A DNA stretch of 58,303 nucleotides from the IMG/VR virus record IMGVR_UViG_3300003324_000049, positions 1-58,303 of that record; one strand, 5' to 3'. The notes beneath the pieces were generated by a model that saw nothing but the letters and a program-made list of their open reading frames with translations, was not told the origin of the DNA and searched no databases. Made by a program: the position numbers and the translations under genes. Shown one piece after another: positions 2,740 through 49,108 of the stretch (within the stretch, counting starts at the first letter, position 1; every line of letters begins with the position of its first letter). Source of the DNA: a virus. Taxonomy: Duplodnaviria > Caudoviricetes.

Positions 2740-3714
2740 TTACAGTTTGTCGTGAATGACGCCGTCGACGTTGAAGTCGATCCAGCAAGAACGCTCGAAG
2801 CCGTTCACGAAGTCACGAACACCGGCCTTCTCGATCTCGTCAAGACCGAGATCAATGCAACCATCCTTGGAATCCTCATGATCGCGACGAAGCCAGCCGA
2901 CAATCTGACCTTCCGTTGTTGCCGGGAAACCAAGAGATTCGTAGACATCATTCAGGAACAGGTATCCCCGAGCATTGAGTCGATCATTCAACCAGTTCTG
3001 CTGGTGTGCAAGAGTCAGCTGGTTTTGACCCGGAACCTTTGACCAAAGGTCGTTGTGCTCATCGAAGACACGAGCGTACGGAGAACGACCGTTTTTCCAG
3101 TCGATGTCCAGAACCTTCTTGGTCCCAACCTGGTTCCCTTCTTCATCGAAGTCGGGAATCTCCTTCTCGACGATGCCGAAGCGGATCTGCTTTTCCTTCT
3201 CCTCACCGAACTCATCCGAAACTGCCCGACGGTAGTTCTCGAATGCCGTTTCAGTTGCCTTGAGGGCAGCTGCAATTGCAACCTGACGCTGGCTCATGAT
3301 GCCGTGGGCGCCGAGGAGTGCGCCGATTGAGAGAACACCCACAGACAGAGCCGGAGTGTAGAGCTTCAAGATATCGACGCCACGCTTGACATAGGCCTTC
3401 GTGAGAGCCTTGTTGAACTCGGTCTCTGAGTCGAACTCGTTCACGGAACGACGATCCTTGACATCAGCGATGTCCTGTTCGGCCTTCTCGACAACTGTCT
3501 CGAGCTTCAGAGTTGCCTTGCAGGCGAGGACTCCAGCGGTTACCACACCGGCTACACCGGCCACCATGAGGATCTCAGGGCTGAAACGCTTGACCTTGCC
3601 AACACCCTTGAAGAACAGGGAAGTTGCCGTGGTTGCGATCTTCTGCGCAGGCTCTGCTGCTGCGGCGACGGTTTCCGCTACGTCGTGTACCGTGTTTGCC
3701 ACTTCGTTACTCAT
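2740..3714 (-). CDS. DUF6353-like membrane-associated phage protein
   Basis: SPEILMVAGVAGVVTAGVLACKAT N-terminus and LND.Y..LG...GW...IDFNVDG C-terminus; paralog of 7361..8122. Confidence 0.7.
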   Translation of the reverse strand: MSNEVANTVHDVAETVAAAAEPAQKIATTATSLFFKGVGKVKRFSPEILMVAGVAGVVTAGVLACKATLKLETVVEKAEQDIADVKDRRSVNEFDSETEFNKALTKAYVKRGVDILKLYTPALSVGVLSIGALLGAHGIMSQRQVAIAAALKATETAFENYRRAVSDEFGEEKEKQIRFGIVEKEIPDFDEEGNQVGTKKVLDIDWKNGRSPYARVFDEHNDLWSKVPGQNQLTLAHQQNWLNDRLNARGYLFLNDVYESLGFPATTEGQIVGWLRRDHEDSKDGCIDLGLDEIEKAGVRDFVNGFERSCWIDFNVDGVIHDKL

Positions 3715-3732
3715 TTTCTGTTTTCTCCTGAA

Positions 3733-4023
3733 TTATTCTTTGACCATGCGGTCAAGAGCTCGTGCAAGTACGGGCATGTTCTTGCGTACTTCTTCTTGCA
3801 TTTTCTTGTGGTAACGAGGAAAATCACCAGGCTCCGACCATGCCATCAGGACAGCTGCCCCTGATGGAATATCGTCGTACTGGGTCAAATCCACATTTGC
3901 CTCAATAGTGGAATCGAGCTCCTTCTTCGTCCTACGTCGAAGGAGCACCTCCCCGAGTGCATAGAGAATCGCAATCAGAGCTACGATTCCCGCTAGCACT
4001 ACAAATTTGTCATCGATGATCAT
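3733..4023 (-). CDS. Small membrane protein
   Basis: N-terminal TM segment, RBS GGGAG. Confidence 0.7.
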   Translation of the reverse strand: MIIDDKFVVLAGIVALIAILYALGEVLLRRRTKKELDSTIEANVDLTQYDDIPSGAAVLMAWSEPGDFPRYHKKMQEEVRKNMPVLARALDRMVKE

Positions 4024-6837: not shown

Positions 6838-6895
6838 GATTTTATCCTTTCAAGATAGACAGGGTGTCCATTATAGGACACGTTAAATTTGCGAC

Positions 6896-7360: not shown

Positions 7361-8122
7361 TTATCCGAATCGGTTGTAATCGCGAATTGGGTTCTTCCAG
7401 TAGTCGATAACGACACAAGGTCGTCCATCTGCTGTGAGGACTGCTGAGTACCGAACTTCCAACTTGTTGTCGTGAGTCCATCCAACTTCATCCCCAACAA
7501 CACTCCCAGGAACAGACAAACGATTAAAGAAATCGTTAAGAGAAGCGTAGTCTTGTCCATAAATCTGTTCGTTGATGTCGTTGACTGCACTTCGGACCGA
7601 TTCATAATCGGACTCAAAGTAAGTCTTGGTGTAGTTGTCGAGAAAGAGCGAGCGGCCACCACCAGTCACAATGACTGAACTTTCGGATACCGGGTTCCTA
7701 CGCACGACATCCTGCATGACTTCGTCGTGGATCTTCGTCTCTTTCTTTTCGCCAAGTTGCTCAACAACCTTTTCACGATATTCCTTGAAGGCATATTCGC
7801 TGAGGCCTACGGCACTGGCAAGTGCAGCACTACGCTTAGTGCTCACAGTGTTCGCTCCAATAATGCAAGCGATGGTGGAGGCTCCAGTAACAGCCGCCGG
7901 GATATAGTGCTTGTATGTGAGCCGAACCTTTTCGACGAGAGTTATTTCGTCAGTCTGTTCGGACTGCGCATGGAGGATATCTTGGTGTGCCTTAGGCGCA
8001 GCCTTTCCTACGAGCACCGCAGTCGTGACTACACCAACAACAGCCACAGCCGTGAGGATAGCCGGAGAGTTGTCAGAGACAAGTTTCCGTGCCACCCCAG
8101 CATAGCGAGTGAGTCGTATCAT
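7361..8122 (-). CDS. DUF6353-like membrane-associated phage protein
   Basis: NSPAILTAVAVVGVVTTAVL; ASLNDF...VGW; paralog of 2740..3714. Confidence 0.7.
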   Translation of the reverse strand: MIRLTRYAGVARKLVSDNSPAILTAVAVVGVVTTAVLVGKAAPKAHQDILHAQSEQTDEITLVEKVRLTYKHYIPAAVTGASTIACIIGANTVSTKRSAALASAVGLSEYAFKEYREKVVEQLGEKKETKIHDEVMQDVVRRNPVSESSVIVTGGGRSLFLDNYTKTYFESDYESVRSAVNDINEQIYGQDYASLNDFFNRLSVPGSVVGDEVGWTHDNKLEVRYSAVLTADGRPCVVIDYWKNPIRDYNRFG

Positions 8123-8149
8123 CAGTTTGGTTTAACCTTTCAAGAGTCA

Positions 8150-8233
8150 AAAAAATAATGAGAAGATGTAGTCTCTCTCTACTCGGACCCAGAACATTCC
8201 CTAGTAGCGGGCGATGATGGGGGTCTTCTTCTC
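8150..8233 (-). ncRNA. Putative small structured RNA cassette 1
   Basis: Promoter motif at 8234-8258, no ORF; GAGAAGA/TCTTCTC closing stem, internal GACCC/GGGTC and GTAG/CTAC stems, T-tract. Confidence 0.6.
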
Positions 8234-8267
8234 ATTATAATCTTTGTTATTTTTGCGATAGGCAAAA

Positions 8268-8331
8268 CAAAAAATGAGAGTGATTGTATTGCTACAATCT
8301 CTTCGATACTATTGCTAGTATGTACTCTCTC
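8268..8331 (-). ncRNA. Putative small structured RNA cassette 2 (two GCAA tetraloops)
   Basis: Promoter motif at 8332-8356; GAGAGT/ACTCTC closing stem; TACTA-GCAA-TAGTA and GATTGTA-GCAA-TACAATC hairpins; T-tract. Confidence 0.7.
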
Positions 8332-8380
8332 ATTATAAGCCATGTTATTTCTGCGATTGGCCAGAAAAGTGGGCAGATGC

Positions 8381-8579
8381 AAAAAATATAAGGCTTGCAT
8401 CTCAAAGTGCTTGTCCCATAATTGGTTACGCAGAATGCAATGAATCACTTTTGCTATCGGTGATACCTTAAATAGAGAAGAGCCGTGACGCGAATGTCAC
8501 TCTAACTAGGTGGACCTGACAGGGAGCTGAAATCACGTCAACGGGGACGTCGGAGATCAGACCGTCAGGGGTTCTTCTC
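8381..8579 (-). ncRNA. Putative structured RNA cassette 3 (two domains)
   Basis: Promoter motif at 8580-8604, no RBS; domain 1 has GAGAAGAACC/GGCTCTTCTC, CCTGAC/GTCAGG, ACGTC/GACGT and GTGAC/GTCAC stems; domain 2 has AAGG/CCTT, ATCAC/GTGAT and TTGCAT/ATGCAA; T-tract. Confidence 0.6.
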
Positions 8580-8650
8580 ATTATAAGCTATGTTGTTTTT
8601 GCGACAGGCAAAAAATAAGAGACCGTGTTAGGGTCTCCTATTTTGAGGAT

Positions 8651-8872
8651 TTAGTTCTTTACGAGTTTGTTACGGATCAAGCTAAAGATGGTCTGCGGTT
8701 CATCGAATTCTTCAATGAGCGACGGGTACTTCTCGATCAAGCGTTCCATCCACTTCTCACCATTCAGCGCGAGTACGGCTGAGAGCGAGAGGGACAGAAC
8801 AGCTCCAATCAGGAAGGAGTTCGCTTCAATGAACTGGCCGATGATGGACAGAACAGCAAAGATGGTTTCCAT
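8651..8872 (-). CDS. Cassette small membrane protein
   Basis: RBS GAAAGGA, hydrophobic N-terminal half. Confidence 0.75.
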   Translation of the reverse strand: METIFAVLSIIGQFIEANSFLIGAVLSLSLSAVLALNGEKWMERLIEKYPSLIEEFDEPQTIFSLIRNKLVKN

Positions 8873-8967
8873 AATAGGTTCCTTTCAGAGGGGGTTCATT
8901 CTCATAATAACCTATGTAGAACCTGCGAACAAAAAATGAGAAGCCGTGTTAGGGCTTCCCATTTGGG

Positions 8968-9204: not shown

Positions 9205-9294
9205 GATGTTCCTTTCATAGTGGGTTAACTTCTCATTAAAGGCCATGTAGAACCTGCGAAAAATGAAAGGCCGTGTTAGGGCCTCCCATTTTGA

Positions 9295-40507: not shown

Positions 40508-43255
40508 TTAGTCTTCAGTTGGTTTGGGATTGATAGCACGATCCAATGTTGATGTAGATACACCAAGGATAGTAGCCACATCAGCCTGTGTCTTACCACT
40601 AGCCAGCAAGGACTGAGCTCTAGCAAGAGTACTACCTGCCATTACCTCTGTCTTCCTGGGTGTAGCCAGTTCCTTGACGTTGTCTATGTCAGCATTGTCA
40701 AGGATCTTCTCCAGCATGTTGGTACTGATAGCACCAGCCTGGATAGCATCCCATTCTTTAGGGGTGATCTTAATGGTCTGCTTGGTAGCACCGGTTCTAG
40801 CACGGCCTTCTTGTTGTGCAAGACTCTTGATCTTCTTGAGTTCAGCTGCATCCATCTCTGGATTAGCATCTCTCTTAGCCTTAACAATAGTACCGGCTAT
40901 CAGCTGGGCATGGCGTTCAAGGGGTTTATTCTTGAGGGCCTCGTTGAGTTTGCCACGGAGGGCGTCTACTTCGACGGCGTATACCTTCTTAGCAGAGGCG
41001 CTTTGTGGAGTGGGGGTAACATTAACCGCTACCTTCCTTGACTCATTGGCCAGAGCCTTCAGCTTATTGGCATGGTCTGCATAGACATGTTCTATAACAG
41101 TGCCGCCATTAGAAGACACCAGGTCATAAGCATCATCTACTAGATCAAGCTTCTTAACCTTAGTAGTCTTGAGGATACCGGTATCCTCATACTTACCAGT
41201 AGCTGGGTTCAGAGCCTTCCGAGTCTCACCAGTCTCTACCCATACCCTCTTACCAGTAGCCTTATCAATAGGTCCACCATCCTTAGCCATACGAGGTTTC
41301 CTATCAGGAACCCTGGCTTCAGACTTAGCCCTAGAGATAATGGTCGATGCACCACCAGCTTTGCCGTTAGGCTTCATCTGGTATTCCCTCTTAAGAGCAG
41401 CAATGCCATTGTCTTTAGCAGACTGCTTATAATCGAGGTGGTGTTTCTCAGCATCGATAACTACCATTGAGTGCTTGACTGCACGAGCAATCTCATTGAA
41501 TGGTGCACCCTTGATGGTCATGTCTGTAATCAGATTAGAGACATCGCCCATCTGTTGGCCTTTGGCTTTGGCCGACATCTTAGGTGCATCATCGGGAAGC
41601 TTATACAGCTTCTTAGGATCGAAGTCCTTCAGTTCCTTTAGGGGCTGAGATGACTTGATCTTACCTTCAGGATTGGGAATGACAAGGACAGTATCGCCAT
41701 CAAAGTCTGCACCAGACAGTCGTTCTGCTACCTTCGAGTTGATACCAATAGCATCCCTAGCCTGCTTGATTACAGCATTGGCTTCACGGTTCTTGTTGTT
41801 GACAACGAGTTCCGGGATTTCAAAAGTACCACCATGAGGGTGTCGAATCAGAACAACCTTTTCTCCATCCTTGTAATTAGGAGCATAAACTTCATAGTCC
41901 TTCAAACTGTTGAATGGGAGAATGACATGGTTGGCAGTTCGAGGAAGACCCGCTGCTTTCAGATGAACGGCAGAAGAATCGGCTCCATCAGCGAACTTCT
42001 CCATCAACTTCCGTTTTACAACAGGGTTGGTGAGAGAATTGATTTCGTCGAATTCGGCTTTCTTCTGATCATACCGTTTTCCAAGCTGTTCCTTAGCAAG
42101 GCTCGGACTTTGCTTAGAGAGCATCTGTGAGGAAAGCTTATTGGACCATGCAGTCCAGTCACCTTCTTCATTCACAATGTTGAGCGCAGAAGTAACCGTT
42201 TCAGTTCCATCTTTGTTCTTTTTCGTGATTTGACGAACAGCAGACCCAAACGGGTTTTCTTCGTCTTTTTGAGGCTTCATAGCATCGAGCTTGTTGCCGG
42301 TGTCACTCTTATTGGTGTTAAAGATCATATCCACACCATTTGGGAGGTTGTCATTATACATGACCATTCCCTTAAGGTAGTGAGTGCCGTTTACACCAAT
42401 TCGAACCTGGGCATATCGAGAATTCCCCATATCAAGGTCTTTTACGCCTCGACGGATCTCAATAACGCCGTCTTTGTCAGCACCGCCTTCTTCGGCATAC
42501 CGAACGCCTACCCGCTTAAGGTCTACGTTGAGCGGGGGCAACATTCCGAAGTTGGTAAAGGATTTACCGCCATCATCAGAATCTCCAAGCAAGGGTTTGA
42601 TCTTGTCCTTGTTTTTGAGAACGTCAGAATAGGTTTTATCAGGACCAGTCAAAACTTTGATATTGGTAAAGTTACCAGTACCCATCTGTTCCTGTTTAAT
42701 GTAGTGGACCTTATAACCTTCTTCTTTAAGAGCGGCAATAGCCGTTCCGAGGCGAGTACTACTTACGCCAAGATGATTTTCGGTTCCAGCACCGAAGTCG
42801 ACATACTCATTCTTCGAAATTTGGTCTTTGATGAGTTTCGCAGTACCAAGAATCGCATTTTGGTCTTCTTTTTGTGCATCGGCAAGAAGAGCACGAACAG
42901 AAGACTCGTTTTTACCACCCATGAGCTCACCAATCTTTACATTGGTATAACCCTTTTCTTTTAGCTTTACAGCCTGGGCAATATCAGCTCGTTTAATCTG
43001 ATCATTAGCGATAGACGTCAAAGCACGAAGCTGAGTCGTCGTCATTTTGTATTCTTTGCCATCCGCATCGACACCGCTGTAGTATTTAGCGATTTCGGTG
43101 GGAGTCAAACCCTGTTTCTGCAGAGCTTCGATGTGACCTTTAAACGAACGAGACCGTTGTTCAGGATTTTCACCGCTACCCCAAGGATAGCGGCCAGACT
43201 TTCGCAGGATGCCTTCATGTCTTAGAAAGCTTGCGTCTGTAGTTTCTTTTCCCAT
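40508..43255 (-). CDS. Single-chain two-barrel (DPBB) RNA polymerase-like protein with HTH domains (915 aa)
   Basis: YAQVRIG...YLKGM (barrel 1); RHPH...LSGADFDGD (catalytic motif, 41693-41713); N- and C-terminal HTH-like segments. Confidence 0.8.
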   Translation of the reverse strand: MGKETTDASFLRHEGILRKSGRYPWGSGENPEQRSRSFKGHIEALQKQGLTPTEIAKYYSGVDADGKEYKMTTTQLRALTSIANDQIKRADIAQAVKLKEKGYTNVKIGELMGGKNESSVRALLADAQKEDQNAILGTAKLIKDQISKNEYVDFGAGTENHLGVSSTRLGTAIAALKEEGYKVHYIKQEQMGTGNFTNIKVLTGPDKTYSDVLKNKDKIKPLLGDSDDGGKSFTNFGMLPPLNVDLKRVGVRYAEEGGADKDGVIEIRRGVKDLDMGNSRYAQVRIGVNGTHYLKGMVMYNDNLPNGVDMIFNTNKSDTGNKLDAMKPQKDEENPFGSAVRQITKKNKDGTETVTSALNIVNEEGDWTAWSNKLSSQMLSKQSPSLAKEQLGKRYDQKKAEFDEINSLTNPVVKRKLMEKFADGADSSAVHLKAAGLPRTANHVILPFNSLKDYEVYAPNYKDGEKVVLIRHPHGGTFEIPELVVNNKNREANAVIKQARDAIGINSKVAERLSGADFDGDTVLVIPNPEGKIKSSQPLKELKDFDPKKLYKLPDDAPKMSAKAKGQQMGDVSNLITDMTIKGAPFNEIARAVKHSMVVIDAEKHHLDYKQSAKDNGIAALKREYQMKPNGKAGGASTIISRAKSEARVPDRKPRMAKDGGPIDKATGKRVWVETGETRKALNPATGKYEDTGILKTTKVKKLDLVDDAYDLVSSNGGTVIEHVYADHANKLKALANESRKVAVNVTPTPQSASAKKVYAVEVDALRGKLNEALKNKPLERHAQLIAGTIVKAKRDANPEMDAAELKKIKSLAQQEGRARTGATKQTIKITPKEWDAIQAGAISTNMLEKILDNADIDNVKELATPRKTEVMAGSTLARAQSLLASGKTQADVATILGVSTSTLDRAINPKPTED

Positions 43256-49023: not shown

Positions 49024-49049
49024 CTGTTTACTCCTTTCAAGAGTGAAAA

Positions 49050-49108
49050 AGATAAGAGACCTTGTTACGGGTCTCTTATCTCTCATTATAAACTGTGTAG
49101 ATCTTGCG
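49050..49108 (-). promoter_or_regulatory. Cassette-type promoter followed immediately by a terminator hairpin
   Basis: CGCAAGATCTACACAGTTTATAATGAGA, then AGATAAGAGACC-CGTAACAA-GGTCTCTTATCT and TTTT. Confidence 0.75.

Follow-up and report, generated by a model that had tools for sequence, protein, structure and literature searches.

The 58,303 bp virus record IMGVR_UViG_3300003324_000049 (Duplodnaviria; Caudoviricetes), analysed here at its full length as the window, is complete and ends in direct terminal repeats, and its minus strand carries every long open reading frame (ORF). On that strand, at 8604–8149 and among genes of the same orientation, lies a block that on balance appears to consist of three self-contained units specifying structured non-coding RNA in four domains (A, X, B and C), which share a promoter and a closing helix, or clamp, that would also act as the terminator. 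The block probably encodes real phage RNAs whose folds are kept by matching changes in relatives, and A and X together (A+X), like B, would most likely be free small RNAs, with C as a leader; the predicted products are approximately 199 nt (A+X), 63 nt (B) and 85 nt (C). The components of the block are as follows.

8580–8604, minus strand: promoter of cassette 1 (TCGCAAAAACAACATAGCTTATAAT); position weight matrix (PWM) score 26.7, within the window's 20 best sites, all 20 of which are on the minus strand.
8475–8579, minus strand: domain A, 105 nt, a 7 bp clamp GAGAAGA/TCTTCTC around a long and a short hairpin; minimum free energy (MFE) -36.9 kcal/mol, z -3.05, 2 of 200 shuffles as good.
8470–8389, minus strand: domain X (consensus fold), a closing stem TAAGG/CCTTA, a hairpin TCAC/GTGA with a conserved 11 nt loop and a long bulged hairpin; extends to 8381 with TA and T6 (T-run 8386–8381).
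8357–8376, minus strand: direct repeat CTGCCCA-N6-CTGGCCA directly upstream of the B promoter.
8332–8356, minus strand: promoter of cassette 2; PWM score 28.0, in the 47 nt direct-repeat family D1.
8269–8331, minus strand: unit B (8331–8275 folded, 57 nt), a clamp GAGAGT/ACTCTC, two GCAA-tetraloop hairpins and a junction TCGAAGA, then A and T6 (T-run 8274–8269); z -4.74, 0 of 200 shuffles as good.
8234–8258, minus strand: promoter of cassette 3; PWM score 25.0, repeat family D1.
8149–8233, minus strand: unit C (8233–8159 folded, 75 nt), a clamp GAGAAGA/TCTTCTC, a long variable hairpin and a short GTAG..CTAC hairpin, then ATTA and T7 (T-run 8155–8149); z -1.82, 12 of 200 shuffles as good.

Upstream of these units are 16 small-gene cassettes of common design (minus strand, 13879–8903), each composed in order of a terminator hairpin with a conserved loop and a T-run, an approximately 30 bp promoter, a short leader ending in GAAAGG, and the ORF. 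The promoter consensus is TTTTTCGCa-N4-tTACA-N5-TTATAaT followed by GAGAA; the TTACA box, just 5 nt away from TATAAT, does not have the spacing of a -35 box, and conservation extends through GAGAA. Every real cassette gene has GAAAGG 5–9 nt before its start. The sequence TTATAATGAGA, with up to two mismatches, occurs 42 times in comparison with 16.3 +/- 4.0 times in shuffled sequence (0 of 100 shuffles reach 42). The three promoters of the block are extra copies that all match the 16-cassette consensus, with the core TCGCA-N5-AACA-N5-TTATAAT followed by GAGA, and there is no Shine-Dalgarno sequence with a start codon inside units A, B or C. An earlier sequence-only reading of this DNA had proposed three promoter-headed non-coding units, each ended by a T-run and each with a 5' leader and 3' trailer clamped around two hairpins to give a three-way junction; the units are confirmed, and the clamp is correct for the folds of A, B and C. 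We note that the terminators of the ORF cassettes (8934–8964, 9250–9285, 8619–8645 and others, minus strand) vary in their stems and keep the loop CTAACAC or CTAACAA, which is unusual for plain intrinsic terminators.

The clamp is general. A regular-expression scan with inspection picked 36 promoter-proximal non-coding units from 12 phage loci, and in 35 of these the MFE fold pairs nucleotide 1–3 after TATAAT with a downstream arm, which in the single-domain units ends 0–4 nt before the T-run. In the block, X, B and C have closing stems of 5–7 bp located 1–4 nt before T6 or T7, as expected of an intrinsic terminator (a stable stem 0–4 nt before at least five U). A plausible scenario is that the units use the same approximately 30 bp promoter as the neighbouring small-gene cassettes, and that the conserved start of the transcript, GAGAAG or GAGAG, supplies the 5' side of the closing helix, the complement of which is 0–4 nt before the U-run. 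A single helix would thus do three jobs, closing the cargo, providing a terminator-like end, and burying both RNA ends, and the cargo would be a compact fold, mostly two hairpins on a three-way junction, maintained by selection. Compensatory helix changes, the general mark of a structured RNA under selection, are found in B, X and C.

Relatives were identified as syntenic loci either through the DUF6353 protein encoded next to the block (L004, L005, and the identical L009 and L010) or through a 16-mer from B (L021, L024, L030 and L038), and the annotated phages Uzumaki, Zeina, ReqiPepy6 (L008), Pherobrine (L041) and P092 (L043) were also compared; cultured Arthrobacter phages such as Uzumaki are only distant relatives of the window at the DNA level. 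For B there are seven distinct homologues including the window, six of them from uncultured relatives. The two GCAA tetraloop hairpins described for the second unit in the sequence-only reading, TACTA-GCAA-TAGTA and GATTGTA-GCAA-TACAATC, are reproduced in the fold. In a model-fitted alignment of 17 pairs, 97.5% of the cells are paired and 5 pairs and 12 cells are changed on both sides, which 0 of 500 shuffles reach; the compensatory changes fall in both hairpins, and sliding the partners by 1–3 columns leaves 26–55% paired. All seven have the junction TCGAAG, and six of them retain the hairpin top GTAGCAATAC; GCAA is the usual loop, GAGA occurs once, and L004 departs from GNRA. The seven score 78–90 bits with a covariance model derived from them (R1), which finds nothing else below E 0.5 in the 305 kb compared. 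The 16-mer scan returned 31 stretches, of which six are on five related phage contigs (L004 and L006 being one contig) and 25 are chance matches on unrelated contigs. R1 found no member in five whole records (Uzumaki, Zeina, Pherobrine, ReqiPepy6 and the L005 contig), an empty answer that shows little. On the 3' side B is followed by a new promoter in five of the seven; in the other two (L004 and L038) an ORF has been inserted there that is unrelated and has a good ribosome site.

The direct repeat ahead of the B promoter also has counterparts in relatives. A CTGNCCA pair with a spacing of N5–6 is seen by eye in the same place in L004, L009, L024 and L030 and is a candidate protein-binding site, although this is only a possible role. 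Its presence only before the B promoter suggests that B has a regulator of its own.

Domain X lies within cassette 1, for which a single three-way-junction RNA had been proposed; this second clamped domain was overlooked there, and a good T-run occurs only after it. X is present in the window, L004 and Uzumaki, with near-identical BLAST matches in GantcherGoblin and Argan. In the window and Uzumaki, an Arthrobacter phage, it is 92.4% identical over 92 nt, the best-conserved DNA in the 4.5 kb compared, and the adjoining DUF6353 proteins are 46% identical. Across the three lineages 97.5% of the cells of 27 pairs are paired and 8 pairs are changed on both sides (5 of them internal), which 0 of 500 shuffles reach, and sliding the partners reduces pairing to 22–44%. 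The unpaired loops and long stretches of X are 78–92% identical across lineages whose proteins are 46–71% identical. A pattern scan for X in viral contigs gave two stretches, the L004 contig, which is real, and a chance match in a coding region of L007. It could be argued that what is conserved here is a peptide, since X contains a five-codon frame (ATG GGA CAA GCA CTT TGA) that is open in all three lineages, and micro-peptides could also be read from the ATG of the TATAATG motifs. However, no Shine-Dalgarno sequence precedes the X frame, in contrast to the GAAAGG of all real cassette genes, the substitutions in its two variable codons are non-synonymous and each goes with a compensatory base in the RNA helix, and the TATAATG frames are of unequal length among homologues (B itself varies in length, and the frame has 13 codons in the window and 5 in L009). 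That the units encode micro-peptides is thus extremely improbable.

Domain A is different in that its interior has no homologue and is unique to the window, with only the clamp ends in common with L030. It is followed by TATTT and not by a proper T-run, and thus lacks the terminator arrangement of X, B and C. Transcription therefore probably continues into X, and cassette 1 would specify a two-domain RNA of approximately 199 nt. Because A+X and B each lead into another promoter, we interpret them as probable free-standing small RNAs.

Unit C has a different relationship to the DNA that follows it, which includes two further features.

8120–8141, minus strand: ribosome site GAAAGG (8141–8136) and ATG (8122) of the gene that follows; no promoter separates these from C, and the layout is the same in 7 of 7 relatives.
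7361–8122, minus strand: 253-aa DUF6353 gene without its own promoter (Pfam PF19880, E 3e-76).

The third unit had been taken to be RNA-only, which overlooked that the C T-run leads at once into a ribosome site and the DUF6353 gene. As C is directly ahead of this promoterless gene in 7 of 7, it is a leader and not only a free RNA, and the gene is evidently expressed only from the unit C promoter, past the C T-run. As an obligatory 5' leader C has a U-run that the polymerase has to cross, by leakage or in a controlled way. When each C homologue is folded separately, the clamp, the long hairpin and the short hairpin are found in 7 of 7 (z -1.8 to -6.7), with compensatory change at the base of the long hairpin, which reads GACCC/GGGTC, GACTAT/ATAGTC or CCCTGTT/AATAGGG while the fold stays the same; the short hairpin retains a GTA..TAC base, and unit C in the window contains a 12 nt perfect inverted repeat (I5). 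The combination of MAFFT and RNAalifold recovered just the clamp, since the interior of C is not alignable by sequence. The window has two paralogous DUF6353 genes, at 2740–3714 and 7361–8122 (minus strand), and only the second sits behind unit C.

Several observations weigh against the interpretation of the block as self-contained RNA units. A ribosome site and ORF follow B in 2 of 7 and C in 7 of 7, so the U-runs, with promoterless genes behind them, are at most incomplete stops. In two rhizosphere metatranscriptome runs there are contigs of a relative approximately 90% identical over 8105–8376 (B and C with their promoters) and over several ORF cassettes, and these contigs cross promoters and T-runs; as they carry no starts, ends or strand, DNA carry-over and read-through are indistinguishable. 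These contigs are the only evidence from RNA libraries, and they do not bear out the abundance proposed in the sequence-only reading. The search for B homologues used an exact 16-mer that includes GAGAGAGTACA, such that the first 11 nt of B are invariant by construction, and the B counts rest on an alignment fitted to the model, which favours structure. A second B anchor gave no new member, its five stretches being four known ones and a chance match in GC-rich coding DNA (L044). The folding energy of X alone is unremarkable (z -0.32; 64 of 200 shuffles do as well), and the structure of X was derived from the same three sequences on which it was tested, again favouring structure. Overall the window is nearer to L004 than to Uzumaki, yet the X of L004 is only 78% identical, and part of the identity of X to Uzumaki may therefore reflect recent cassette exchange and not constraint. 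The fold of C in the window alone is marginal, as listed above. Finally, if a host sigma-A polymerase uses TATAAT as the -10 box it would start approximately 7 nt downstream, and transcripts begun at that promoter would lose the 5' arm of the clamp.

The cassettes of sister phages provide a context for these units. ReqiPepy6 has a tRNA-Ala in the same cassette slot (Rfam, 42.1 bits), and Gordonia phage Pherobrine has at 3680–3890, between genes 40 and 41, an unannotated promoter-to-T-run cassette with a cloverleaf-like RNA that has a 4 nt 'anticodon' loop. In Lactococcus phage P092 (3580–3708, 3968–4125 and 7831–7944) the actinophage promoter core, a clamp, an RNA and a T-run are followed directly by a ribosome site and ORF; the cargo is twice a tRNA-like fold with D and T arms and a poor anticodon arm, or else another hairpin RNA, and no RNA feature is annotated. 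ARAGORN reports 0 genes in Pherobrine, Zeina and P092, and Pherobrine and P092 nevertheless hold tRNA-like folds by eye and by MFE. The description in the sequence-only reading of RNA as cargo of the small-gene cassette system is thus a fair one, with tRNA or tRNA-like RNA in the same slot of sister phages.

Other clamped families also recur: the A-family has members at five loci, L004 and L038 share a D-family, and an E-family is common to L021 and ReqiPepy6. The next element after A-type, X and E-type units is a promoter; D-type and other units are leaders elsewhere. The distribution of X is mosaic (present in Uzumaki and L004, absent from L009, L021 and L024). We also note that the E-family members, in soil phage contig L021 (4680–4803, minus strand) and Rhodococcus phage ReqiPepy6 (1547–1672), have the core GAC-CGAATGCGT-GGTG-AAAC in common, and that the most distant relative, L005, contains at 1960–2100 three copies of an approximately 27 nt unit (GTGCAAAAATCGTCTTTGATGGTACAC-like) between two RNA units.

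The leader position of C raises the alternative that the block is a cis-acting control region, in which stacked promoter-terminator units shield the DUF6353 operon from the strongly transcribed array of small genes upstream and set its level, or form an antitermination checkpoint with two-hairpin RNAs acting on the polymerase. HK022 put and lambda nut boxB are cis-acting antitermination RNAs by phage promoters, and GNRA-type loops near a promoter are reminiscent of nut boxB. The units resemble put and nut in having two stem-loops right after the promoter, GNRA-type loops, and genes beyond the terminator (C, and B in 2 of 7), but differ in that the hairpins are enclosed by a clamp, most units lead into a new promoter, and the polymerase is probably not that of the host; the likeness is one of description and not of sequence. 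Consistent with cis control are the DUF6353 gene behind C in every relative, the ORF inserted behind B in two, the D-type and other units that lead genes elsewhere, the promoter, hairpin, T5 and ribosome site arrangement that is found also at 49084 and repeatedly in P092, and the RNA-library contigs that cross promoters and T-runs. However, A+X and B lead into a fresh promoter in most relatives (five of seven for B), which is needless for a leader, and a single fold dominates in both B and C (MFE frequency 0.46–0.47), with no alternative antiterminator pairing. The tRNA in the ReqiPepy6 slot argues for product RNAs, and the unpaired loops of X are conserved in sequence. Control in cis is thus possible but unlikely as an explanation of the block.

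A different alternative is that the units are decayed or empty cassettes, in which the ORF was lost by recombination between the promoter (AATGAGAAG) and a similar terminator 5' arm, and the fold merely reflects the compactness needed for termination; the RNAs would then lack any function. The terminator 5' arms (AAAATGGGAAG) are indeed similar to the promoter end (ATAATGAGAAG), mini-hairpin versions exist in Uzumaki (GAGAGG..CCTCTC) and at 49084 in the window, and even close relatives differ greatly in the interiors of A and C. In the related Arthrobacter phages of cluster AU a 32 bp intergenic repeat flanks each gene of a small mid-genome cassette region and is linked to gene shuffling and proposed to mark recombination boundaries, according to the accessible part of that report (bioRxiv 10.1101/2020.01.10.891226). 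The likeness to the cassettes here is in the intergenic repeats of a small-cassette region, and AU phages carry the same polymerase homologue as the window (described below); the AU repeat may well be the promoter found here, a match drawn from the description and not from comparison of the sequences. The difference is that the repeats are read there as recombination sites, and the accessible part of the account contains no mention of promoters, terminators or RNA-only units. Against decay, the B junction TCGAAG and the GTAGCAATAC top are retained while the stems change compensatorily, the long unpaired stretches of X exceed the proteins in identity (78–92% and 46–71%), and several distinct RNA families recur in mosaic fashion across phages, including the A-family at five loci, the D-family at two and the E-family in L021 and ReqiPepy6. 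We regard decayed cassettes as an improbable explanation.

The approximately 450 bp of non-coding DNA with three tandem promoters and T-rich runs could also be a mid-genome replication origin or priming region, with short transcripts from the tandem promoters priming DNA synthesis in the manner of transcription-primed phage origins, and the sign of the GC skew at 8–14 kb is opposite to that of the flanks. But the skew change matches the whole cassette array and not the block, no iterons or tandem repeats are found, the units are shuffled and interleaved with ORFs in relatives, and the covariation indicates selection on RNA folds. An origin is thus very improbable.

The RNAs do not correspond to known classes. 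Rfam 15 has 0 matches at the gathering threshold in the whole window, the best match in a permissive search of 8000–8750 is a chance-level snoRNA (E 0.3), and the ReqiPepy6 tRNA is the sole match in nine related loci. ARAGORN finds 0 tRNA genes in the window, and there is no Rfam tRNA match in it either. Of the checks proposed with the sequence-only reading, covariation bears it out, with compensatory changes for B and X and the architecture of C in 7 of 7, and Rfam provides no match. A hammerhead or other small self-cleaving ribozyme was considered and rejected, as there is no Rfam ribozyme match up to E 10 and in B the second hairpin directly abuts the clamp, which leaves no room for the conserved strand that a hammerhead requires at that position. 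There is no indication of antisense pairing to the phage's own mRNAs, as exact complementary 10–12-mers to the sense strand show no excess over shuffled queries; the 10/11/12-mer counts, observed and shuffled mean, are 7/2/0 and 5.4/1.4/0.35 for A, 5/1/0 and 4.1/1.1/0.30 for X, 1/0/0 and 2.3/0.7/0.14 for B, and 1/0/0 and 3.4/0.9/0.30 for C. The repeat array of a ToxI-type or repeat-mimic anti-CRISPR RNA is also absent, with 0 rows from Tandem Repeats Finder (minimum score 30) and the three promoters as the only direct repeats. The suggestion that the RNAs are decoys, antitoxin mimics or anti-CRISPR RNAs finds no support, with 0 tandem repeats and no Rfam match; the decoy idea is neither supported nor refuted. 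Our best guess is that B and X bind protein, because of their paired GNRA loops and conserved unpaired stretches. The sequences directly show the anatomy of the units, their conservation and covariation, and the reuse of the design for tRNA or tRNA-like RNAs in sister phages; the termination efficiency, RNA stability, +1 position and all trans functions attributed to the units are inferred.

Phage tRNAs and neighbouring small stable RNAs, such as the T4 stable RNAs, are among the closest comparisons. The units are likewise small, highly structured and ORF-free, and sister-phage cassettes carry tRNA or tRNA-like RNA, but the four domains of the window are not tRNA-like (ARAGORN 0, Rfam none) and are organized as separate promoter-to-terminator units and not as a processed cluster. 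A broader reading is that a phage supergroup with actinobacterial and Firmicutes hosts uses one polymerase-specific cassette to mass-produce end-clamped RNAs and small proteins, and that the RNAs, comprising new families (among them the double-GNRA B, X and C) and tRNA-like molecules whose anticodon arms are defective, are swapped like genes and act as trans decoys or sponges for host RNA-binding or RNA-cutting defences. We offer this as a speculative and rather unlikely proposal.

A candidate for the polymerase that would read these cassettes is encoded in the window and was overlooked in the sequence-only reading.

40508–43255, minus strand: probable homologue (915 aa) of YonO-like two-barrel RNA polymerases, ending in a C-terminal helix-turn-helix; DFDGD at residue 517, where DxDGD is the catalytic-loop motif of the family, HTH_23, and a weak Pfam RNA-dependent RNA polymerase match at residues 507–559.

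The Pfam match (RdRP) is at E 0.0031 and 16.7 bits, under the 23.8 cut-off, and a sequence search of the PDB gave no meaningful relative. A tblastn search with the 915-aa ORF found 250 phage records, in some of which the annotation reads RNA-dependent RNA polymerase; the hosts include Arthrobacter, Gordonia, Streptomyces, Rhodococcus and Lactococcus, and the homologues in cultured relatives are mostly annotated just as helix-turn-helix DNA-binding protein. The family has been reported as a putative YonO- or crAss-like polymerase, with HHpred support for homologues, in the accessible part of one study (bioRxiv 10.1101/842583), and YonO itself is a proven phage RNA polymerase whose promoter is still undefined in the accessible part of that paper (PMC5467207). 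The promoter core TTACA-N5-TATAAT-GAGA is common to phages of Arthrobacter, Gordonia, Rhodococcus and Lactococcus, all of which carry a homologue of the 915-aa polymerase. We infer that the phage YonO-like polymerase reads the cassette promoter and starts at the G after TATAAT, which would explain why the clamp always begins there.

The units thus resemble intrinsic terminators and the cassettes of phages with their own RNA polymerase, in that a stem is followed by a U-run and a long conserved promoter runs into the first transcribed bases. They differ from intrinsic terminators in that the helix is long-range, joining the first and last bases of the transcript around a 45–90 nt multi-hairpin insert, and is not a local hairpin, and from phages with known polymerase cassettes in that the candidate here is a two-barrel YonO-like enzyme, a type for which the accessible text on YonO defines no promoter (PMC5467207).

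Among the other features of the window are two variants of the cassette design. The first is the simplest promoter-terminator-gene form and includes the hairpin at 49084 mentioned above; the second is a variant promoter.

49040–49108, minus strand: promoter copy, plain hairpin with T5, ribosome site and ORF (PWM score 22.7).
6838–6895, minus strand: variant promoter with TATAAT within a perfect palindrome (GTGTCC-TATAAT-GGACAC), ahead of a 63-aa ORF (6837–6646).

The palindrome around TATAAT may be an operator over the -10 box.

Highly expressed non-coding RNAs have reportedly been seen by RNA-seq in mycobacteriophages. Like the units here these are non-coding transcripts of actinobacteriophages, found there by expression and here by structure, and there is no sign of shared sequence, fold or clamp design. 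A full-text literature search found no description of RNA-only cassettes in the phages considered here, the account of the AU repeat being the nearest, and the words terminator, transcription, RNA polymerase and intergenic do not occur in the main text, as accessible, of a survey of Arthrobacter phages (PMC5513430). Correspondingly, annotation is blank at these stretches in cultured relatives, as in the gaps between Uzumaki genes 34 and 35 and 37 and 38 and between Pherobrine genes 40 and 41. Uzumaki, which grows on A. globiformis B-2979, has a clamped unit ahead of gene 38 in addition to X.

If transcribed as predicted, the units would represent several new structured RNA families, none of which is in Rfam 15, and a reusable design in which one helix provides cargo closure, terminator and end protection. 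They would also supply a candidate promoter and a candidate +1 position for a widespread and uncharacterised YonO-like polymerase, making its specificity directly testable in vitro. The mosaic RNA cargo, with X in Uzumaki and L004 but missing from L009, L021 and L024 and with tRNA or tRNA-like RNA in the same slot elsewhere, suggests that RNA genes in these phages are shuffled in the same manner as accessory protein genes, and such shuffling is typical of host-interaction functions.

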